DNA of 64,000 bases. It comes from Candidatus Saccharibacteria bacterium UBA6572. Lineage in GTDB: Bacteria > Patescibacteriota > Saccharimonadia > Saccharimonadales > Saccharimonadaceae. Below, piece after piece: positions 3,705 through 16,920 of this stretch (its first letter is position 1; every line of letters starts with the position of its first letter). A program made the translations under genes and the position numbers. The notes beneath the pieces are model-generated. The model was not told where the DNA came from, did no database searches, and worked only from the letters and a program-made list of their open reading frames with translations. Where the stretch lies: the NCBI GenBank assembly GCA_002434045.1, contig DJJI01000003.1, positions 997-64,996 on the forward strand, in the 5' to 3' direction.

Positions 3705-4775
3705 ATGCAACCAACAGATTTACGAATAGAGACACTGCTAGAGGACGTTATACGAAAACGTGCGTCAGACCTGCACCTGCAGGTTGGGCTACCGCCGATG
3801 CTCAGGATCGATGGGTCTCTGGTACCAGTTCCAGGATTAGAGCCGCTCGATATCGAAACGGTTGAAAAACTGGTTTTCGCCATTCTCGACCAGGATCAAC
3901 AGCAGATTCTGATGAAGGATAAGGAGTTCGATTTCAGCTTTGCTTTCGGTGACCTCGGTCGTTTCCGTGTTAACGCGTTCCACGAGCGAGGCAATCTCGC
4001 CGCTGCGCTACGTCTCATTCCGAATGAGATCAAGACGATCGCTGAGCTTGGTATGCCAAACGTGGTCAATACGTTCTCTAGCTATCCACGTGGTCTCGTC
4101 TTGGTGACCGGACCGACAGGTTCCGGTAAATCGACGACACTGGCAGCACTCATTGATCAAATCAACACCGACAAAGCGCACCACATCATCACCATCGAGG
4201 ATCCAATCGAGTTTACGCACAAGTCCAAAAAGTCGGTCGTAGTGCAGCGAGAAGTCCACTACGATACGTATTCATTCAGCGCCGCACTTCGCTCAAGCCT
4301 GCGTCAGGACCCTGATGTCGTTCTGATTGGTGAGATGCGTGACCTCGAGACCATCTCGGCGGCCATTACGATCGCTGAGACCGGGCACCTCGTCTTTGCG
4401 ACGCTTCACACCAACTCAGCCGCGCAGTCGATCGATCGTATGATCGATGTCTTCCCACCGCACCAACAGCCGCAAATCCGTGCCCAGCTGGCAAATATCC
4501 TGATGGGTATCTGTTCACAACGCCTCGTACCGGCGATCGGTGGTGGTAGGATCGTTGCGGCCGAGATCCTGACCGCTACGCCTGCGGTACGTAACATTAT
4601 CCGTGAAGGCAAGACGCACCAGCTTGATGCGGTTATCCAGACCGGTGGTGACCAGGGTATGCAGACCATGGACAAGACACTCGTCGGACTCGTCCAGGCC
4701 GGAACTGTTACCTACGAAGAAGCGCGAAACTTTGCCGTAGATATCACTGAATTCGATAGGATGATGCGAGGCTAA
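3705..4775 (+). CDS. pilT: Twitching-motility retraction ATPase PilT
   Basis: ASDLHL, GPTGSGKSTT, DVVLIGEMRD and ETGHLVFATLHTN motifs are present, and the size (about 356 aa) fits PilT. The ORF track start is GTG 3690; ATG 3705 is an equally plausible start. Confidence 0.93.
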   Translation: MQPTDLRIETLLEDVIRKRASDLHLQVGLPPMLRIDGSLVPVPGLEPLDIETVEKLVFAILDQDQQQILMKDKEFDFSFAFGDLGRFRVNAFHERGNLAAALRLIPNEIKTIAELGMPNVVNTFSSYPRGLVLVTGPTGSGKSTTLAALIDQINTDKAHHIITIEDPIEFTHKSKKSVVVQREVHYDTYSFSAALRSSLRQDPDVVLIGEMRDLETISAAITIAETGHLVFATLHTNSAAQSIDRMIDVFPPHQQPQIRAQLANILMGICSQRLVPAIGGGRIVAAEILTATPAVRNIIREGKTHQLDAVIQTGGDQGMQTMDKTLVGLVQAGTVTYEEARNFAVDITEFDRMMRG

Positions 4776-4777
4776 CC

Positions 4778-5983
4778 ATGTTAACGTTTAGTTACACAGC
4801 TAGGGATAGGGCGAACAACAAGATTGTGAAATCCACCCTGCAGGCTGAATCGGAGGCGGAAGCAGCTAAACTGTTGATGGCTCGTGATCTCATCCCGCAC
4901 GAGATCAAGCCAGAGTCGGCAGGTGGCGGACTGAACTTCCTCAAAAACCATGTCGGTACCAAGGACAAGGTCGTCTTTACGAGGCAGCTTGCAACACTGA
5001 TCAATGCAGGCCTACCGCTTGCTAAGAGCTTGCACACAGTCCAGGAGCAGACCGAGAACAAACGCCTCAAGACGATTGCGCAAGAAGTGATAGCAAGCGT
5101 CGAAGGCGGTAGTTCGCTGGCAGACGCATTCGCGAAGCACAAAGAGTTCGATGAGCTTTTTATCGCCCTTGTGGCTGCAGGTGAGGTGTCTGGTACGCTC
5201 GACAAAGCTCTGGAGCGCATAGCTAACCAGCAGGAAAAGGACGCGGAGATCGCCGGCAAGATCAAGGGCGCTATGCTCTATCCGGCAATCGTGCTTGTCG
5301 TTATCATCGGTGTTATCATCTTTATGCTCACGACTGTCGTGCCGCAGATCGAAACTCTTTACGCGAGCCTTAAACAGTCACTACCGTTCTTGACCGCCAT
5401 GATGGTGGCGATGGCTGACCTCTTGACGAATTTCTGGTGGCTCATCCTCATCGTGCTCGGTATCGGTGTCTACTACCTCCGCCACTACGTTGAAACGACC
5501 TCTGGTAAGCGACAACTTGATCTTTTCAAGCTCAATGTGCCGCTTTTTGGCACTATGTTTCGAAAGCTCTACATGGCGCGATTCACGCGGACCGGCCAAA
5601 CGCTTCTTATGAGCGGTGTGCCGATGCTCGAGATGCTCCGTATCGCAGGTCGCTCCTCAGGCAACAGCCACGTCACAGACGCGATTCTTCGAAGCGCCGA
5701 TAAGGTCAAGACCGGTAAAGCACTTTCGGAGTCGATCAAGAACGAAGAGTATGTCCTCCCGCTTGTACCTCAGATGATTAGCATCGGTGAACAGTCGGGA
5801 ACGATCGACGACATGATGGGCAAGGCTGCGACATTCTATGAAAATGAGCTGGATGCTGCGATCCGTTCTATCTCAACGGCTATCGAACCGCTTCTCATGG
5901 TCGTGCTTGCGATAGTCGCCGGTGGTATGGTTGGTGCTATCTTGCTACCTATCTACCAGCTGGTCGGTAACACCTCTCTCTAG
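4778..5983 (+). CDS. pilC: Type IV pilus platform protein PilC (GspF family)
   Basis: 401 aa with a duplicated GspF-type domain and three TM segments, placed directly after pilB and pilT. Confidence 0.93.
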   Translation: MLTFSYTARDRANNKIVKSTLQAESEAEAAKLLMARDLIPHEIKPESAGGGLNFLKNHVGTKDKVVFTRQLATLINAGLPLAKSLHTVQEQTENKRLKTIAQEVIASVEGGSSLADAFAKHKEFDELFIALVAAGEVSGTLDKALERIANQQEKDAEIAGKIKGAMLYPAIVLVVIIGVIIFMLTTVVPQIETLYASLKQSLPFLTAMMVAMADLLTNFWWLILIVLGIGVYYLRHYVETTSGKRQLDLFKLNVPLFGTMFRKLYMARFTRTGQTLLMSGVPMLEMLRIAGRSSGNSHVTDAILRSADKVKTGKALSESIKNEEYVLPLVPQMISIGEQSGTIDDMMGKAATFYENELDAAIRSISTAIEPLLMVVLAIVAGGMVGAILLPIYQLVGNTSL

Positions 5984-8926: not shown

Positions 8927-9566
8927 TCGTACACGAAACCAGGGCTTCACACTCATCGAATTGATGCTTGCGATGGTATTTTTGAGCGCGATCATCTTGT
9001 TTGGTGTGCTTACGTTTGTCCAGGCGCTTGCCGTCTACAACAAGGGTATTTCAATCTCACAAATCAACGAAACTGGCCGAGCATTGACGAATGACCTCAA
9101 CCGATCGTCAAATAACGCCACATCCTTTATGGTCTCTGATCAAATCATGTGCATCGGCAAGACTGCCTACATGTGGAACACGGTTGCAACGCCAACTGGC
9201 CAGCAGTATCGCGTGAGTGGCCAACCGATAGGTATTGTGCGAACGGTCGACAGTATAGACGCGCGTAACACCTACTGCAACAGCGCTAGTCGGACGATTC
9301 AGCCAAACGACGTTACTAGTCTCATCGGCACGCAGGTTCGTGTCCTTGACGTTACGGTTGGGCAGCCAGATTCCGCAGCTGCCGAGGGGAGCTCTCTTGA
9401 GGCGCCGCTCCTGAAATTCGTTCTCACTATCGGTACGAGGAGTGAGGATGGGGCGGTTGACCCAGTCCAAAGTGGTACCTACTGGACGTGTCCTACCGGT
9501 ACATTCGGTACGTTTTGCGCGGTCGGCACCTACTCAACTACCATTTACGTGCAGAGTGGGTCATAA
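8913..9566 (+). CDS. Minor pilin (prepilin-type N-terminus)
   Basis: N-terminus ...RTRNQG|FTLIELMLAMVFLSAIILF. Confidence 0.75.
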   Translation: MAISSRTRNQGFTLIELMLAMVFLSAIILFGVLTFVQALAVYNKGISISQINETGRALTNDLNRSSNNATSFMVSDQIMCIGKTAYMWNTVATPTGQQYRVSGQPIGIVRTVDSIDARNTYCNSASRTIQPNDVTSLIGTQVRVLDVTVGQPDSAAAEGSSLEAPLLKFVLTIGTRSEDGAVDPVQSGTYWTCPTGTFGTFCAVGTYSTTIYVQSGS

Positions 9567-11104
9567 TGAAGGCAATCATGAGGGAAATGGGGAACAGAAA
9601 GACCGAGAACGGATTCGTTTCGATACTGACGGTCTTGATGTTCATGATCTTGACGACCATCGTGACCGTAAGTTTCGTGACCCTTACACTCGGAGAGCAG
9701 CGCCAGACACTTAACGATGACCTCGCAAAAGGCGCGTACGATGCTGCTCAGGCTGGGATAGAGGACGCGAAACGAGCTATTCGACATTGTCGCAACACTG
9801 GATGTGAAACGGCACTTTACAACCAATCATGTCCAGGTTTTTTTGAGACTAATCAGATGAAGACGGACCTTGGCCTGACGACCGTATCGCCGACGACCAA
9901 TGCCATCAGGGTTGGAGAGCCCTCTGCGAACCAGCGCTATACTTGCGTGACGGTGTCAAATGTCATCAACAAGTTCTGGGGTGAGCTTGATCCAAATTCT
10001 GCTGCCTCGCAGACCGTCTTTCTGCCGCTCAAGGGCGAAACTCCCTTTAACAGTGTGAAAATATCATGGTCGATGCGATCAGGCACTGCCGCGCTGCCAA
10101 GTGCAGCCCAGGTCCAAACAACTAATCCCTCGCTGCCGAACTGGAATGCGAACTGGCCTGCGGCCATGAGGACGATGATACTGAGTCACCCAACCGGTAA
10201 TGTTTCGGAGAGCTCCGTCACATCTCGATCAACCTTTTTCGTACCGGCTTCCGGAGGCGTGAACAACTATGGCCACGGTAGTACGAACGCCCGAATCGTC
10301 ACAAGGTGTAATACTGCCAACCAGGGTGGTGCGGAAAACGTCGATGGTGATTATCTATGTCAGATGACGATTACAGGGGTAGGTATAACAGGCCAAGATT
10401 GGTATCTTCAGCTCGCACCTTATTACCAAGCAGCCGCGTTCAAGGTGGAACTGTTCAATAACAGTACTCGGGTCAATATGGTGGACGCTGGTTATTTAGT
10501 AGACTCAACTGGCGCAGTTTCAGATGTCTATCGTCGGGTCCAAGTGATGCTCGGTCCTGATGATGTTGTTTCTCCGAGCAGCTCGATACAAAGTGGTGAA
10601 AAACTATGTAAGAACTTCAGAGTAACCGGCTTCTTTAATACTGTCTTGTCCCTTGGTGAAAACTGTGATCCGACCGTTTCGGTGACGCCGCCCGTGGGAG
10701 GTGGTGGCGGCGGCGGTGGTGGCAGTGCCCAGGCATTGCTCGGAGGTTATTGCTCAATTAATGTGTGTAACCCAGGTGATGACGATGATGGACCCGGGGG
10801 TGGTGGAGGCAACGGAAATGGTAACGGCAATGCGCCTCCAACCAACTATACGCAAAGAATCTTTAACGCGTCGAACAACCCCTCATCAGAAGTCGCAGGC
10901 TGTCGTTGGGCGATCAGTGACGGGACAGTGATAAATAACCAATACTGTAATTTCAATGACAGCTTTCTCCACACGTTCCCAACCACACCATACCCACCAA
11001 GAGTGAGATATGATGTTACCCTGACAGTTACACTGCGATCAGGTGAGCAGGCAACATATACGGGTGCGTTCTACGAGCCAAACTACACCAGCGCAGGCAA
11101 CTAG
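9566..11104 (+). CDS. PilX-like minor pilin with Gly-rich linkers and a C-terminal PKD-like domain
   Basis: ATG 9566 overlaps the upstream stop (TAATG). The N-terminus ...KTENGFVSILTVLMFMILTTIVTVSF is PilX-like, with no E+5. It has a poly-Gly tract (G9), a GGGGGNGNGNGN tract, and a C-terminal segment CRWAISDGTV...FLHTF...YDVTLTVTLRSG resembling the PKD signature. The ORF track extension to 9488 overlaps the previous gene and is not needed. Confidence 0.65.
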   Translation: MKAIMREMGNRKTENGFVSILTVLMFMILTTIVTVSFVTLTLGEQRQTLNDDLAKGAYDAAQAGIEDAKRAIRHCRNTGCETALYNQSCPGFFETNQMKTDLGLTTVSPTTNAIRVGEPSANQRYTCVTVSNVINKFWGELDPNSAASQTVFLPLKGETPFNSVKISWSMRSGTAALPSAAQVQTTNPSLPNWNANWPAAMRTMILSHPTGNVSESSVTSRSTFFVPASGGVNNYGHGSTNARIVTRCNTANQGGAENVDGDYLCQMTITGVGITGQDWYLQLAPYYQAAAFKVELFNNSTRVNMVDAGYLVDSTGAVSDVYRRVQVMLGPDDVVSPSSSIQSGEKLCKNFRVTGFFNTVLSLGENCDPTVSVTPPVGGGGGGGGGSAQALLGGYCSINVCNPGDDDDGPGGGGGNGNGNGNAPPTNYTQRIFNASNNPSSEVAGCRWAISDGTVINNQYCNFNDSFLHTFPTTPYPPRVRYDVTLTVTLRSGEQATYTGAFYEPNYTSAGN

Positions 11105-12021
11105 GCTGGTTTTTTAGTTCTATGGAACTTGCTGTGCACGTCGTGGAGATGCTGGTCAGTCACATGGGTGTAAATCTGGGTGGTCGCGATATTGCTATGA
11201 CCGAGCATACTCTGGACCGACCGGATGTCAGCACCGTTCATGAGCAGATCAGTCGCGAAACTGTGACGCAACGTATGTGGTGAGACATGCTTGGTGATGC
11301 CTGCCAGCTTTGCGTAGTGCGAGACGATGCGCTGGACGGAGCGAGGAGTGAGACGGAAGCTTTCCCCCTCGCTGTCTCCGTGTTTTGCGCCGCTGTAGCG
11401 GATAAAGAGTGGTTTGGCAGGGTCGCTACGAGTTTCGAGGTACGCGGCGAGGCACTCGGTAGCTTCGGGGCTGACAAAGACCGGCCGGTCCTTTTGTCCC
11501 TTACCACGCACCATGAACTCGCCGCGCTGCAGGTTGACGTGGTCGCGGTTCAGGTTACACAGCTCGCTGACGCGGAGCCCAGATGAGTAGAGCAGCTCCA
11601 GGATAGCTTTGTCACGTAGCCCCCCAGCCGATTGGCCGTCAATTGCCTCGAGGATACGCTCGGTCTCCTCCTGAGTTAGGAAACTAACCTGTTTGCGCTT
11701 TGTTTTCGGTAATTCCACCTTTTCCGGAGTCAGCGTCTCGATATCACGCTTCGAGCAGTAGCCAAGGAAGCTTCGAAGGGCGATCAGGTGGTAGCTCTGG
11801 GTAAGGGTACTGAGGCTATCGCCGGCTTCGTTTTCATAACGATTGAGCCATAGGCGCCATTTACGGACCATCTCGCTGGTAATCTTTTCGACTTCGATGT
11901 CGCCGGCAAATTCAACCAGCCGATCAAGGTAGAGGTGGTAGTTCTCGGCTGTGCGCTGTGAACGGCCGCGTTCAACCTCGACGTGCTCGATGAAGTCGAT
12001 GATGAGCTCTGAGAGGTACAT
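11101..12021 (-). CDS. xerC: Tyrosine recombinase, XerC/XerD family
   Basis: Catalytic contexts GLRVSEL, HTLRHSFAT and LGHSNIATTQIYTHV are present, with an N-terminal SAM-like core-binding domain. The start is taken at MYLSELIID (ATG 12021); the ORF track extends to 12171. Confidence 0.85.
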   Translation of the reverse strand: MYLSELIIDFIEHVEVERGRSQRTAENYHLYLDRLVEFAGDIEVEKITSEMVRKWRLWLNRYENEAGDSLSTLTQSYHLIALRSFLGYCSKRDIETLTPEKVELPKTKRKQVSFLTQEETERILEAIDGQSAGGLRDKAILELLYSSGLRVSELCNLNRDHVNLQRGEFMVRGKGQKDRPVFVSPEATECLAAYLETRSDPAKPLFIRYSGAKHGDSEGESFRLTPRSVQRIVSHYAKLAGITKHVSPHTLRHSFATDLLMNGADIRSVQSMLGHSNIATTQIYTHVTDQHLHDVHSKFHRTKKPA

Positions 12022-12085
12022 ACGCCTATCATACCGCTTACGTTCATATTTTGCGACACGGTGCCGTGCGGTACAATAAATTGCA

Positions 12086-12880
12086 ATGACTATCTTTGAA
12101 GCCATCGTCCTGGGTCTCGTCCAGGGTTTGACCGAGTTTATCCCGGTTTCGAGCTCAGGGCATCTACTCATCTTTCAGAATTTCTTGCTCGGAGAGGTTG
12201 ATCACCTATTTATTCAAGCGCTTGATTTCGGGACCTTAGCGGCGCTACTCATCTACTTCTGGCCAAAACTCAAAGACTTGTTTCTACAGGTAACGAAACA
12301 AGATGATTACCGTCTGGCACGTAATATTCTCATCACGAGTATTCCAGCGGGGCTTTTGGGGCTCTTACTGGCTGACTTCATCCAGACCAACCCGTTTATC
12401 CTCTCGCCGTACCTGACGGTAGCGATGCTGGCCAGTGTCGGTGTGCTGATGATACTATCCGATATGCTGCCTCAGAAAACTGCTCGTGAGAGCGGTAGTG
12501 ATCTTAGTGCACGCCGTTCATTGTTCATCGGTTTGGCACAGAGCCTCGCGCTGATACCGGGTGTATCTCGTTCTGGTTCAACGATACTGGCTAGCCGCGT
12601 TATGGGGCTCAACCCTAAGGCTGCCGCAGAATACAGCTTTATGGTTTCGATCCCGATCATGGTCGGTCTGGTCGGCAAGCTGCTCCTCAAGCCATCCGAC
12701 CGCCAATACCTCATCGACAACGCCGGAGTATTGTTAGTGGCTAACCTGACAGCCTTTGTCGCGGCGCTTCTCGCCATCCATTTCCTGCTGAGCTACTTGT
12801 CGAAACATGGCCTCAGTATATTTGGCTATTACCGCATAGCCCTTGCTACGGTCGTACTGTATCTACTTCTGTTACAATAG
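12086..12880 (+). CDS. uppP: Undecaprenyl-diphosphate phosphatase (BacA/UppP)
   Basis: Motifs EFIPVSSSGHL and PGVSRSGSTI in a polytopic membrane protein of 264 aa. Confidence 0.9.
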   Translation: MTIFEAIVLGLVQGLTEFIPVSSSGHLLIFQNFLLGEVDHLFIQALDFGTLAALLIYFWPKLKDLFLQVTKQDDYRLARNILITSIPAGLLGLLLADFIQTNPFILSPYLTVAMLASVGVLMILSDMLPQKTARESGSDLSARRSLFIGLAQSLALIPGVSRSGSTILASRVMGLNPKAAAEYSFMVSIPIMVGLVGKLLLKPSDRQYLIDNAGVLLVANLTAFVAALLAIHFLLSYLSKHGLSIFGYYRIALATVVLYLLLLQ

Positions 12881-13569: not shown

Positions 13570-14085
13570 ATGGAACCTGCATTTGATGGTCAGCGAGAGG
13601 GCGAAGAAGTCGTCCTGGTCTTTCGCCGTCATATCATCGCGCTTCGCAAAGGTTTTTACTCGATACTGGTACCATTCGCGTTGGCCAGCCTACCAACCCT
13701 TTTCTTTCCGGGAGAGTTGCTCTATCTCTACATTGCGTTCGGTGGTCTTGCGTTCGGTCTCGTCCTGTTCTTTTACCACTGGATTGGTTGGTACTTCACG
13801 ATATTCATCCTGACTGACCAGCGCCTTAGACAGAGCACGCAAAAGGGCTTTTTCGGCAAGAGCGTCATCGACCTACCGGTATCAAAGATCCAAAACATAA
13901 GCTATACTATTCCTGGATTGAGTGGTGAGTTGTTTGGCTTCGGAACCATCGTTATTCAGACGTATGTTGGCGACCTTATCCTCGATCTCATCCACCAACC
14001 GGGCGAAGTGTATAACAAGCTGCAAGATGTCGCGGCAACAGCCGCCCCTAATACCTCAGGAAATCATGAAGAAATTAACAGCTAA
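13570..14085 (+). CDS. Membrane protein with a bacterial PH (bPH_2/YdbT-like) domain
   Basis: Two TM helices followed by ILTDQRLRQ...VIDLPVSKIQNISY...GFGTIVIQT, which resembles the bPH_2 pattern. Confidence 0.55.
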   Translation: MEPAFDGQREGEEVVLVFRRHIIALRKGFYSILVPFALASLPTLFFPGELLYLYIAFGGLAFGLVLFFYHWIGWYFTIFILTDQRLRQSTQKGFFGKSVIDLPVSKIQNISYTIPGLSGELFGFGTIVIQTYVGDLILDLIHQPGEVYNKLQDVAATAAPNTSGNHEEINS

Positions 14086-15097
14086 GTTCAAAAAGGCTCA
14101 ACCGCCTGAAGAGAAGTCGAGCCGGATCACCAACGAGACGGTCGCAGAACATCGTGAACAGATTTTGGCCGGCGGACGCAAGTTCAAGTATCCGGTCCAA
14201 TACGCAAAGCACAAACTCGTGCTCAACAGCCTCCTGATTGCGTTCGGTGCCATAGTACTCTTGTTCGTCCTCTGTTGGTACCTGCTGTACTTCGCGCAAG
14301 TGAACACCAAATTTATGTATCGGCTTACGCAGCTCGTGCCAGTGCCAGTCGCGAACGTCGACGGTGAAGATGTCCGCTATAGTGAATACCTCAAGAAATA
14401 TCGCAGCGATATCTTCTCGCTGGTTCAACAGGAGCAGATCAATCTCAAGAGCGCCGACGGCAAGCGCCAGAGCGAGTACTACAAGCGTCGCGAGCTCGAT
14501 GCGGCCATCAAAGAGGCGTATGCAGCCAAGTTGGCACGTGAACTCAAGATTACCGTCAGCCGTGCCGAAGTGGACGAATTTATCACCAAGACGGTGAACA
14601 GCAAGTCGATCAGCCTCGAAGCTTACGAAAAGACGGTGCTCCGCAACTTTTATGACTGGTCGCTCGATGAGTACCGTGGTGTCGTCAAAGCACGCCTCAT
14701 CACGCAAAAGGTAAGCTTTGCTATCGACGATGCTGCTCTCGCTCGTACCAAGTCGCTTGCCGCGCAGGCCAAAGGTGGGGCGGACTTTGCAAAGCTAGCT
14801 GCCGAGAACTCTGACGACCTCGCAACCAAGGGCAATGGTGGTGATGTTGGTGGCTTGCCGCTGGACAACCAAGACCCAAATCGTCTGATCGTTGCTGCTC
14901 AAAAACTTGAAAAGGGTCAGGTAAGTGATCCAATTCAGGGAAGCGATGGTTACTATGTCATCAAACTTATCGAAAAGAGTGACACAGCAGTGCACTACGC
15001 ACAGATAAAGGTAAATCTGACTGAGTTTGACAAGCGATTTGAGGCCGTTAAGAACGACAAAAAGATCAAAGAACACATCAAGGTCGAGCAGCTGTAG
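14066..15097 (+). CDS. Membrane-anchored PpiC/parvulin-type peptidyl-prolyl isomerase (PrsA/SurA-like)
   Basis: N-terminal TM (LLIAFGAIVLLFVLCWYLLYF) and a C-terminal parvulin block GADFAKLAAENSDD...GGDVGGL...GQVSDPIQGSDGYYVIKL. The start is taken at ATG 14066 (MKKLTAKF); the ORF track start at 13922 lies inside the previous gene. Confidence 0.8.
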   Translation: MKKLTAKFKKAQPPEEKSSRITNETVAEHREQILAGGRKFKYPVQYAKHKLVLNSLLIAFGAIVLLFVLCWYLLYFAQVNTKFMYRLTQLVPVPVANVDGEDVRYSEYLKKYRSDIFSLVQQEQINLKSADGKRQSEYYKRRELDAAIKEAYAAKLARELKITVSRAEVDEFITKTVNSKSISLEAYEKTVLRNFYDWSLDEYRGVVKARLITQKVSFAIDDAALARTKSLAAQAKGGADFAKLAAENSDDLATKGNGGDVGGLPLDNQDPNRLIVAAQKLEKGQVSDPIQGSDGYYVIKLIEKSDTAVHYAQIKVNLTEFDKRFEAVKNDKKIKEHIKVEQL

Positions 15098-15101
15098 GAC
15101 C

Positions 15102-15129
15102 AAAAATCACCTCCTTCGAGGTGATTTTC
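15102..15129 (+). terminator. Rho-independent terminator
   Basis: Stem aaaatcacctc / gaggtgatttt with loop cttc and a T-run. Confidence 0.85.
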
Positions 15130-15251
15130 ATATGCTTTGTAGCGGGCCCTGGTGGATGAAGTTGGAACTTTAGATACTCTAAGAAATGAAAGCGCCCCTC
15201 AGGGCACCTTCACCTCGAAATGAGAGAGGTGCCCTTTAGGGCTGTTGTTGG

Positions 15252-15863
15252 TCACGCCGCCCGCATGAGGGGGTTGACTGTGAAGTAGGGCTCGCGTCCG
15301 TGGACTCCGCTGCCGACGATGCGCAGGAACTGCCGGTCGAAGTCGGCCTGTACCGGGAGGCTCTCGTGAGGTGTGAGGATCCCGATGCGGTGTACCTCGC
15401 CAGCCTGCATGAGAACAGCGTCCTCGTATGGATACAGGTCAGCCTGATTGCCGATGTCACCGTCGTACGAGGTGTCCTCGTGCTCGACGTCCCACAGGGC
15501 GCAGCTGCCGCTCAGGTTGTTCGCGAGCAGCACCCGGACATCGCGGTCAAGGAATACGTTGGTCGCCGATCCCCAGCCACTTCCGCCCCAGCCGAACTGG
15601 CCTGTGGGCCGGCGACCTGCTTCGGTGTGAAGCGCGCGGCCGAACGTGGCGCGGGCTCCGCGGTGCGGCACACCCTTGCGAACGGGTGACTCGTCGATGG
15701 TCAGGAACCCGACGTCGCCTCTCGTGAGGTACGTCGACTCGACGATGCTGCGGTACGCAGCGTAGTCGTCCGGAATCGAATCCGGATCGCCCTGGATGTA
15801 GGGCATCATGAGGCAACGAACTTCCGAATACTCGGGGAAGGTCACCGTTCCAACTTGTGTCAT
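15252..15863 (-). CDS. Hypothetical protein encoded by a high-GC (actinobacterial-like) gene
   Basis: 203-aa ORF with AAGGA 8 nt upstream of the ATG. Codon third positions are strongly G/C. Five other ORFs of 60 aa or more overlap it on both strands, which is typical of GC-rich DNA. I recognise no family motif. Confidence 0.6.
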   Translation of the reverse strand: MTQVGTVTFPEYSEVRCLMMPYIQGDPDSIPDDYAAYRSIVESTYLTRGDVGFLTIDESPVRKGVPHRGARATFGRALHTEAGRRPTGQFGWGGSGWGSATNVFLDRDVRVLLANNLSGSCALWDVEHEDTSYDGDIGNQADLYPYEDAVLMQAGEVHRIGILTPHESLPVQADFDRQFLRIVGSGVHGREPYFTVNPLMRAA

Positions 15864-15922
15864 TGGCGTTCCTTAATGTTCGAGGTATTCCTACACACAC
15901 CCGAATGGGCACGATAATAAAA

Positions 15923-15946
15923 TTAATACCACAAAAGTGGTATTAA
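15923..15946 (-). terminator. Hairpin with T-run (minus strand) between the tRNA-Asp repeat copy and the high-GC gene
   Basis: Perfect 10-bp stem ttaataccac / gtggtattaa with loop aaaa. On the minus strand it is followed by ttttatt. Confidence 0.5.
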
Positions 15947-15954
15947 TCAATACT

Positions 15955-15972
15955 TGGCGGGCCCGACCGGAT
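15955..15972 (-). repeat. Direct repeat: perfect 18-nt copy of the tRNA-Asp 3' end (att-like)
   Basis: tggcgggcccgaccggat at 15955-15972 is identical to 16126-16143, which is the 3' end of tRNA-Asp including CCA. A third, degenerate copy at 15141-15160 (agcgggccctggtggatgaa) shares the blocks gcgggccc and ggatgaa at the same spacing. Confidence 0.85.
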
Positions 15973-16125
15973 GAACGCACGATGATAGACTAGCTTCGCT
16001 ATTCCACCATCGGCTAAACCTTGTACAAATCAGAGATTTGACAAGCTTCTGAACCGTCTTCGCCGGTTCGTATCCGAAACGAGCAAACACGAAAAAAGTC
16101 CACCAGAGTAGGTGAACTTTTTTCG

Positions 16126-16203
16126 TGGCGGGCCCGACCGGATTCGAACCGGCGATCTCCTCCGTGACAGGGAGGCGTGATAGGCCAACTTCACTACGAG
16201 CCC
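16126..16203 (-). tRNA. tRNA-Asp (anticodon GTC)
   Basis: Hand-folded: acceptor gggctcg/cgggccc, D arm gtga...tcac, anticodon arm cctcc-ctGTCac-ggagg, T arm gccgg-ttcgaat-ccggt, and an encoded CCA. Confidence 0.9.
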
Positions 16204-16320
16204 GCGACGTCAGTCGCGCCCAGTCACAGGTTTCGGGCACGAATTCGACCAAGCAATCTTAGCAAATTTTCACCCCCTACGCAACAGGGGAGAGTTTGCT
16301 ATAATGGTCGGCGGACCTGT

Positions 16321-16396
16321 GCCACTTTAGCTCAGTTGGTAGAGCGACACATTCGTAACGTGTAGGTCAGCAGTTCGATCCTGCTAAGTGGCTCCA
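16321..16396 (+). tRNA. tRNA-Thr (anticodon CGT)
   Basis: gccactt acceptor, gctc-agttggta-gagc D arm, anticodon loop ttCGTaa, T arm cagca?gttcgatcctgct context, and an encoded CCA. Confidence 0.88.
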
Positions 16397-16415
16397 CGTC
16401 GGTATTCACTTCGGC

Positions 16416-16458
16416 GTCGCCAATCATTTTGCGATCAAGTAGCAAAATGATTGGCGAC
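16416..16458 (+). terminator. Perfect 17-bp hairpin after tRNA-Thr (terminator-like, no T-run)
   Basis: gtcgccaatcattttgc - gatcaagta - gcaaaatgattggcgac. Confidence 0.45.
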
Positions 16459-16554
16459 ACCTCCGTTATACCTCCTTTCGACTGAAAACAGGGTTTTCAC
16501 TCGGGAATCGCAGAGAATATGGGGCGCATTCGCGCTATACTAATGCATAGAGTT

Positions 16555-16920
16555 ATGAAGAAAACCTTTCAAAGTTCCATCCGAGATCGCAGCTATGTGA
16601 TACCACTGGCGCTCGGGGCACTGCTCGTCATCGTCCTGCTCATCATGGGTGCGGCTCAGATTCGCATCTCTGAGCTCCAGGTACCGGTGCGTTATACCAG
16701 TTTTGGTATCACGAACTTTTACCGTGAACAGTGGTTTTATCAGCTGACATTTCTGTTTTTTGGGCTTCTTGTCTATGTCATGCACACGCTCGTTGGGCTC
16801 AAGCTGTTCGAGAAAAAAGGACACGACTTCGCTGTTGCGTTCCAGTGGCTGACGGTCGGCTTACTACTTATGACCGTCATCACGGTAGCGGCAATCTTTC
16901 AGGTGGCGGACCTCGTCTAA
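16555..16920 (+). CDS. Small polytopic membrane protein (partner of the downstream GT2 synthase)
   Basis: Three or four TM helices, with its stop 1 nt before the next start. The start is taken at MKKTFQ (ATG 16555), downstream of a TATACT box; the ORF track starts at 16519. Confidence 0.5.
   Translation: MKKTFQSSIRDRSYVIPLALGALLVIVLLIMGAAQIRISELQVPVRYTSFGITNFYREQWFYQLTFLFFGLLVYVMHTLVGLKLFEKKGHDFAVAFQWLTVGLLLMTVITVAAIFQVADLV

Follow-up and report, generated by a model that had tools for sequence, protein, structure and literature searches.

In a 64,000-nucleotide stretch of the Candidatus Saccharibacteria bacterium UBA6572 genome (contig DJJI01000003.1, positions 997 to 64,996; hereafter "the window," in whose coordinates all features are given), the 3′ flank of the tRNA-Asp gene holds a small array in which a foreign single-gene cassette lies between two displaced copies of the tRNA's own 3′ end, the nearer of which closes a structured, gene-less module that recurs in other species. 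Comparison with related genomes shows this flank to be highly variable and marks it as a recombination hot spot in this Saccharimonadales clade. We read the array as the outcome of successive insertions at att-like sites derived from the tRNA-Asp end, made by a recombinase acting in trans and with the foreign cassette captured between two such tags—a reading to which we would give an even chance of being right.

Displaced copies of the tRNA-Asp 3′ end

ARAGORN and Rfam agree on an intact tRNA-Asp(GTC) gene with encoded CCA at one end of the array (minus strand, 16126–16203; Rfam tRNA 62.5 bits), where the initial annotation of this stretch had placed it. Its last 18 nucleotides (copy 1, 16126–16143; TGGCGGGCCCGACCGGAT on the plus strand, CCA included) comprise the last 2 nt of the T-loop, the 3′ strands of the T-stem and acceptor stem, G73 and the CCA. 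The same 18-mer recurs exactly at 15955–15972 (copy 2, minus strand), 153 bp (15973–16125) beyond the tRNA, and a search of the window for further copies, relaxed to ≤3 mismatches, returned these two places only (shuffle expectation, 0.05 matches; two matches in 0/100 shuffles). That recurrence had been noted from the sequence beforehand, as had a degenerate third copy at 15141–15160, and the latter too withstands a chance test. Specifically, the aligned part of copy 3 (GCGGGCCCTGGTGGATGAA, 15142–15160, within TAGCGGGCCCTGGTGGATGAA at 15140–15160, minus strand) matches copy 2 in register at 15/19 positions, is the sole further match of ≥15/19 to copy 2 on either strand of the window, and attains a similarity reached by 0/20,000 shuffles of the local 93-nt interval. 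By direct count from the sequence, copy 3 matches the tRNA 18-mer at 13/18 positions. It is closer to copy 2 (GGATGAA) than to the tRNA (GGATTCG), such that copies 2 and 3 have in common a derived GGATGAA where the tRNA has GGATTCGAA, and its mismatches form a single 4-nt block (GACC to TGGT) plus one more position (P = 0.012 under random placement).

Preservation of the displaced copies declines away from the tRNA: 18/18 for the proximal and 13/18 for the distal copy in the window, 18/18 and 16/18 in the related locus L024 (related loci carry L numbers throughout), with a similar, weak trend in L017 and L179. Among near relatives the ACCGGAT core is, by our estimate from counts, ~60–100-fold enriched within 250 nt of the tRNA.

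Every tRNA-end copy, the tRNA itself included, is followed by a terminator-like hairpin. T1 (16088–16127), a bidirectional hairpin delimited from its inverted repeat, its folds and the sequences of relatives, adjoins the tRNA 3′ end, and a T1-type terminator also adjoins tRNA-Asp in L019, L015, L177, and L182; T2 (15921–15948, minus strand), found by terminator scan, lies just past copy 2 in the tRNA sense; and T3 (15103–15128, bidirectional), delimited by terminator scan and junction comparison, is common to the array and the SurA-like gene beyond it. Read in the tRNA direction, the order is tRNA-Asp, T1, the 115-nt body of a module that we call module B, copy 2, T2, a 0.75-kb cassette, copy 3, and T3. 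The arrangement is 99.8–100% identical over the overlapping parts of 11 same-species contigs, obtained from at least eight samples with several assemblers, and the insert therefore looks fixed in the species. That the repeats arose by chance, or that the high-GC gene between them is an assembly chimera, has only the shortness of copy 3 to recommend it; as copies 2 and 3 are reproduced in 0/100 and 0/20,000 shuffles, and as the same arrangement stands in 11 independently assembled contigs, we consider such an origin extremely improbable and effectively excluded.

T1 is also the center of a 96-nt imperfect palindrome (16060–16155, ~71% self-complementary), in which a sense-oriented T-arm-like sequence (16060–16076) mirrors the true tRNA-Asp T-arm (16139–16155); an element resembling this palindrome occurs in L098, L015, and L182. 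Just downstream of the neighboring tRNA-Thr gene, a 20-nt inverted repeat (16413–16461, 95% complementary) is probably the tRNA-Thr terminator.

A foreign gene between copies 2 and 3

Copies 2 and 3 flank, as the initial annotation had recognized, a gene of high GC (guanine plus cytosine) content. This open reading frame (ORF; 15252–15863, minus strand, 203 amino acids), the cargo of the array, has 64.1% GC against 51.2% for the window, which makes it the strongest GC outlier there (about +4.2 standard deviations). The other ORFs listed between the repeats overlap it in other frames, and it is the only plausible gene among them and the only one with homologues. It forms the core of a single-gene cassette (15172–15920, minus strand) that comprises a promoter region, a hairpin in the 5′ untranslated region (UTR), the ORF, and a long 3′ hairpin (15194–15242); T2 overlaps the probable −35/−10 region of the gene, as read by inspection.

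The cassette recurs elsewhere as a unit. DNA homology spans window positions 15184/15190 to 15915/15936 in five other metagenomic contexts (L011, L092, L094, L095, and L098), in which the ORF, ~55–70 bp upstream of it and the ~55-nt 3′ hairpin are retained at 75–78% DNA identity. Four of these contexts are unrelated loci; in the fifth, L098, the cassette again lies downstream of tRNA-Asp, behind a CHAP-domain gene. In all contexts the gene has ~60% GC and its flanks 41–53%. The cargo gene is foreign: it is a compositional outlier, it recurs in five other contexts, and it is absent from the corresponding slot of nine related species (see below).

Both ends of the cassette are structured in all six genomic contexts, with a conserved 5′-UTR hairpin (window 15864–15920) that carries apparently compensatory changes and with the ~55-nt 3′ hairpin, and the gene holds 60–64% GC whatever the GC content of its host. 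The encoded protein has no sequence match in Pfam, NCBIfam, or the PDB and no integrase domain. It belongs to a large and tightly conserved family (1259 homologues, the top 120 at 63–81% identity) and matches phrog_8970 at 2.9e-17; its phage homologues are only two jumbo-phage hypothetical proteins (26–28% identity). The confident AlphaFold2 model (predicted local distance difference test score, pLDDT, 91) has weak Foldseek similarity (TM-scores 0.3–0.38) to double-stranded β-helix (DSBH)/cupin 2-oxoglutarate (2OG)/Fe(II) oxygenases, and the protein may have a cupin/DSBH-like fold. The closest non-identical homologue (81% amino acid identity), in L011, lies ~700 bp from a 288-amino-acid RVT_1 reverse-transcriptase gene (4443–5309). 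This neighbor led us to consider the 18-mer as a primer-binding site for a retroelement, which we rejected: the tag is only 7–8 nt long in other modules, and the array encodes no reverse transcriptase.

Module B and related modules

In the initial annotation, the 153 bp between copies 1 and 2 served as a spacer in the scar of an integration event. It is instead a conserved, structured module. The body of module B (15973–16087, minus strand), recognized by nhmmer homology and by folding, contains three hairpins (15980–16012, 16020–16045, and 16051–16069 in plus-strand coordinates), and in the predicted fold a four-way junction is closed, on the tRNA-sense strand, by pairing of 16072–16084 with copy 2. 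Window positions 15955–16125 have nhmmer homologues in L024 (E = 1.6e-15), L017 (6e-10), and also L174, and in all three module B stands without the cargo. As module B's own, tRNA-distal end, copy 2 cannot be explained simply as a scar of the cargo's arrival.

Related module types, A and C, occur in L012, L015, L182, L024, L177, and L179. In each module, the end farther from the tRNA is a copy of the tRNA-Asp 3′ end, and the nearer end adjoins a terminator hairpin. This tRNA-end tag is perfect in the window, in module B of L024 and in L174 (18, 18, and 17 nt), matches at 16/18 positions in module A of L024, and is reduced to 12 nt in L017 and to 7–8 nt in L012, L177, and L179. Modules may also stand in tandem: L024 has A, B, and the tRNA (three copies of the tRNA end), and L174 has two tandem modules, X and B, with one 18-mer copy within the contig, which ends there. 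Profiles of modules A and B match only the tRNA-Asp flank in nhmmer searches of the window and of all related loci, and no dispersed copies of the kind expected of miniature inverted-repeat transposable elements were found there. Module B of the window and of L024 are 75% identical, as compared with 58% for the DNA of the adjacent SurA-like genes; because identity is higher in the module than in this neighbor, and because distant genomes can share one module type while close genomes have different ones, the distribution suggests that modules move horizontally. A metagenome scan for the module returned one true module (L174) among eight matches. Scans of IMG/VR with the module B motifs CAAATCANNAGATTTGAC and CCCGACCGGATGN{0,1}AACG, and with copy 3, gave either no matches or matches that the nhmmer profile identified as chance. 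We also considered T2 as a remnant of the terminator of module X of L174, with which its homology is not significant (p = 0.27).

The structure of the modules raises the possibility that they are RNA genes. Under this alternative they would be tRNA-Asp-derived, tRNA-like RNA genes, or cis-acting elements of transcripts, transcribed in the tRNA direction: the tag and the 5′ strand of the module would pair in an acceptor/T-like helix and so close a four-way junction of cloverleaf-like form, a terminator would follow, and the repeats would be functional 3′ ends rather than att scars, among which the cassette landed by illegitimate or homology-facilitated recombination. Module B folds at −80.3 kcal/mol on the minus strand (z = −8.9) and at −58.7 kcal/mol on the plus strand (z = −4.7), and in each of the three B-type bodies the tRNA-sense strand gives the more stable fold, with a margin of 5.6 to 16.9 kcal/mol. 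The 18-mer can form the closing stem in the window, L024-B, L177, and L012, a terminator follows each copy, and the tag has remained perfect in three B modules whose bodies are ~75% identical where measured, which suggests constraint. Two hairpins of the B modules carry compensatory changes, with six pairs changed on both sides and one G·U pair kept in 4/4, though the four B-type sequences on which this count draws give the covariation no statistical weight. That the cassette lacks tRNA-end repeats in its other contexts would also be expected if the repeats had no part in its insertion.

Several observations run counter to an RNA function, however. T1 is a strong terminator and no promoter was found between it and the module body; no Rfam family matches (with Rfam 15 over 14900–16600, the two real tRNAs alone reach the gathering score, and the module region falls far below threshold); and the strand bias is confined to B-type modules, being inconsistent in A- and C-type bodies, so that we do not take strand asymmetry as proof of RNA. 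Modules persist in L012, L177, and L179 with tags of 7–8 nt, and a 3′ end under universal constraint would not be so reduced; they are patchy in distribution, being absent from L014, L178, L019, and all distant relatives; and the proximal-to-distal decay of the copies and the block-wise, hybrid look of copy 3 are left without explanation. We regard the RNA-gene alternative, the chief rival of successive insertion, as possible but doubtful.

Variability of the SurA/tRNA-Asp interval

The conserved left border of the array is a SurA/parvulin-like peptidyl-prolyl isomerase gene (14066–15097, plus strand; Pfam families on the called gene), which served as synteny anchor for 80 Saccharibacteria loci and for closer relatives retrieved from metagenomes. 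The gene order SurA, tRNA-Asp (minus strand), tRNA-Thr (plus strand) is widely conserved, and the interval between SurA and tRNA-Asp differs in nearly every species. Twelve other species, in which SurA is 56–83% identical, make up our near-relative comparison. The slots of nine of them lack the cargo: L177 has module C only; L012 and L015 have module A; L182 has a 102-amino-acid ORFan and module A; L178 has a 48-amino-acid ORF; L179 has module C and a partial copy; L017 has module B and a partial copy; and L014 and L019 are empty, with gaps of 56 and 67 bp. The L013 locus (SurA 75% identical), whose inverted tRNA gene lies where the contig ends, is uninformative on the cargo, and the region is rearranged in L184. 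The two slot ORFans (L182, 4035–4343, on the tRNA's strand; L178, 4647–4793) have no match above Pfam curated thresholds, and in L024 the gap contains a DDE (rve) transposase fragment (9201–9560), upstream of both modules there.

In 23 more distant relatives (L026, L030, L032–L035, L039–L041, L043–L045, L047, L048, L050–L052, L054, L057, L058, L060, L066, and L086), an Fe/Mn superoxide dismutase gene (sodA, ~200 amino acids) stands in the slot, frequently accompanied by additional unrelated genes; the window's own clade lacks it in the slot, and a search of the 64-kb window found no homologue. As much of the large gaps in distant relatives is this syntenic sodA, we do not count those gaps as evidence of islands. 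Among the other slot ORFs sampled in distant relatives are genes for a methyltransferase, a HAD hydrolase, a cytidylyltransferase, and unannotated proteins, and none encodes an integrase; for several more (MFS-like and surface proteins) the assignment was made by eye alone. The orientation of tRNA-Asp relative to SurA and tRNA-Thr is flipped in at least nine scattered lineages (L013, L018, L020, L027, L028, L031, L047, L052, and L089), which suggests recurrent small inversions at this locus.

Such lability invites an explanation in which the interval simply turns over by natural transformation and homologous recombination, with tRNA-Asp/tRNA-Thr and SurA as anchors, and in which the tRNA-end copies, produced by local duplication, slippage or short-tract gene conversion, had no role in the insertion of the cargo. 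Saccharibacteria are naturally transformable, slot content varies in almost every species between syntenic flanks, nine lineages have the tRNA gene inverted, the searches turned up no dedicated recombinase, and the cassette stands at unrelated loci without repeats—all of which accord with turnover. What it fails to account for is the exact extent of the copies from T-loop start to CCA end, the terminator after each copy, the tandem modules of L024 and L174 with related but non-identical bodies, and the homology between a junction of the window and one of L024 (described next). On this balance we hold turnover alone to be an unlikely explanation.

Cargo junctions and the case for accretion

The junction beyond the cargo has one counterpart. 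T3 and copy 3 are homologous to the point in L024 at which the terminator of module A meets the start of module B, the shared sequence being AAAAATCACC..GGTGATTTTCATAT, 6 nt, and T(G/A)GCGGGCCC; ~1 Mb of related loci contains no other match of this kind. The window reads AAAAATCACC…GGTGATTTTCATAT, 6 nt, and then TAGCGGGCCC…GGATGAA, and L024 reads TGGCGGGCCCGACCGGATGGAA after the module A terminator and continues into module B without interruption. The window thus looks like the L024 junction with ~0.8 kb inserted and a ~20-nt tag duplicated on both sides, as would fit insertion at a pre-existing tRNA-end-like site accompanied by duplication of that site. Moreover, since the mismatches of copy 3 are concentrated in a single block and GGATGAA is common to copies 2 and 3, the two copies look less like products of random decay than like hybrid attL and attR sites left by a crossover in the common GCGGGCCC segment.

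From these features we infer a mechanism, an order of events and a mobilization in trans as follows. The array would have grown through conservative site-specific recombination, the target of which was either the tRNA-Asp 3′ end itself or one of its displaced copies, with an att core running from the T-loop to the CCA and with the recombinase supplied in trans. A module B was most probably already resident when the cassette inserted at its distal tag and duplicated it; on this view copy 3 would be a hybrid with a native left part followed by element-derived TGGTGGATGAAGTTGG, copy 2 the reciprocal hybrid, and the putative attP would contain …CAATACTTGGCGGGCCCTGGTGGATGAAGTTGG…. The resulting array would since have become fixed in the species. 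The extent of the repeat from T-loop to CCA is as expected for a crossover in the T-loop, or for recombination within a tRNA 3′ end, and the junction homology, the hybrid-like copy 3 and the preservation gradient likewise favor site-specific insertion. In this respect integration into the tRNA 3′ end, as proposed in the initial annotation, gains from the absence of the gene in nine species, the variable slot, the T-loop start, the gradient and the L024 junction.

A number of results weigh against this accretion, and with it against parts of the earlier proposal. Copy 2 belongs to module B, and arrays of two or three tRNA-end copies also occur in cargo-less relatives (L012, L017, L024, and L179). 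Nine species lack the cargo, but none of the related loci proved to be an exact empty site with copies 2 and 3 merged into one; L017 was considered as such a site and rejected, as its spacer and the sequence after copy 3 are not significantly similar (p = 0.37). Presence/absence polymorphism of the cargo is nil among the 11 same-species contigs, and tRNA-end repeats are absent around the cassette in all five other contexts, L098 included. A double-stranded circle of 171 bp, the intermediate that module B would require, is physically awkward. The covarying hairpins and the tRNA-sense fold bias of B-type modules are not needed by a pure recombination scar, and the fact that the 18-mer is perfect in three B modules that have diverged indicates either constraint or events of very recent date. 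Finally, no integrase of matching specificity has come to light: none was found on an element with matching att specificity in the window, none in the SurA/tRNA-Asp gaps of ~68 related loci (larger ORFs Pfam-scanned as a sample, the rest judged by eye), and no cognate integrase-bearing element in three pattern scans of IMG/VR (exact patterns).

The initial annotation held that no integrase remains. As regards the array, this is borne out, for there is no dedicated integrase in it; the surroundings do, however, include a gene for an Xer-like tyrosine recombinase 3 kb away (11101–12171, minus strand; Pfam Phage_integrase, 5.7e-46), outside the island and reported as context. The gene is syntenic in all 66 relatives whose loci reach it, at 57–88% identity and with or without modules, and because this synteny is universal irrespective of modules we take it to be a housekeeping gene rather than an island-specific one. 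The window contains no second tyrosine recombinase or Xer-like paralogue. Across Saccharibacteria the Xer-like protein is more conserved (57–88% amino acid identity) than its SurA-like neighbor (35–83%). A dif/Xer reading, after the manner of integrative mobile elements exploiting Xer (IMEX), was set aside, as we judged the tRNA-end repeat unlike a dif site.

A variant of accretion would reconcile structure with mobility. The 130–190-nt modules would be tRNA-Asp-derived, cloverleaf-like elements (RNA or folded single-stranded DNA) that act as portable att sites, that is, as stackable landing pads for single-gene cassettes whose recombinase is encoded elsewhere; the universally conserved Xer-like enzyme 3 kb away could conceivably be that recombinase. 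We offer this as speculation and think it quite unlikely to hold. If true, integrase-poor, naturally competent Saccharibacteria could by this route capture self-contained single-gene cassettes.

Significance and relation to known systems

Gene acquisition is poorly understood in Saccharibacteria and other members of the candidate phyla radiation (CPR), whose genomes are tiny and contain few recognizable mobile elements. The tRNA-Asp flank, as a conserved insertion hot spot occupied by integrase-less mini-modules with tRNA-end tags and by at least one captured foreign gene, offers a concrete place to test gene gain in this lineage. If the modules are functional att carriers or tRNA-like RNAs, they would represent a new class of small elements; otherwise the array is an islet of the ordinary tRNA-linked sort, and only its host is unusual. 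To our knowledge, such accreting elements are undescribed in CPR bacteria, and a full-text literature search found no description of them there.

Integron cassettes offer a likeness in logic only. There, as here, a single-gene unit (~0.8 kb in our case) stands in tandem arrangement by a structured, site-like element and encodes no recombinase. On the other hand, we noted no IntI gene and no attI in our array, the R″/L″–L′/R′ signature of attC was not seen by eye, the cassette has promoter-like and terminator elements of its own, and the repeats are tRNA-derived.

Genomic islands in tRNA and tmRNA genes are closer. In the Islander description, a regenerated target gene and a displaced fragment of it give the endpoints of an island (PMC4383910). 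In these terms, the intact tRNA-Asp at one end of the array is a regenerated target, copy 2 (18/18) and copy 3 (13/18, and 15/19 to copy 2) are non-random displaced 3′-end fragments, and the cargo is of foreign composition as in such islands; the definition there rests, however, on a tyrosine integrase inside the island, whereas the repeats here enclose a single non-integrase ORF and no integrase gene. Also close in layout are the cis-mobilizable elements (CIMEs) described for insertion sites of streptococcal ICEs (integrative and conjugative elements) and IMEs (integrative and mobilizable elements), which have lost the genes for integration and transfer and kept attL and attR (PMC5704250). 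Accretion of CIMEs likewise leaves att-like repeats around segments without recombination genes, in tandem, and this layout—att-like ends kept, no recombination or transfer genes, tandem arrangement—recurs in the window and L024 (three copies each) and in L174. CIMEs are, however, decayed ICEs or IMEs with a known integrase-bearing relative; here none was found, and any excision here is hypothetical.

The islands at ssrA, the tmRNA gene, of Dehalococcoides provide a further close parallel (McMurdie et al., 2011; PMC3146451). Their insertion point was inferred to lie in the T-loop, and the gene's 3′ end is directly repeated over ~20 bp; 15 of the islands, which have no integration module, were put forward as cis-mobilizable, and 16 encode the serine recombinase DsiB (PMC3146451). 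Like the modules described here, they form a tandem series on the downstream side of a tRNA-like gene, a repeat of whose 3′ end delimits each of them, and beside the repeat they have a short conserved motif unlike the gene itself, the counterpart of which here is GGATGAACG vs. GGATTCGAACC. They are, however, far larger and gene-carrying and are spread across as much as 100 kb, whereas our modules measure 0.15–0.8 kb, have no dedicated recombinase that we found in relatives, and in their smallest form are gene-less with covarying hairpins. By analogy with these systems, the tRNA-Asp array may represent accretion scaled down to 0.15–0.8 kb, a miniature, integrase-less form of the tRNA-linked genomic island that is set apart from them by its scale, its structured gene-less modules, and the phylum of its host.

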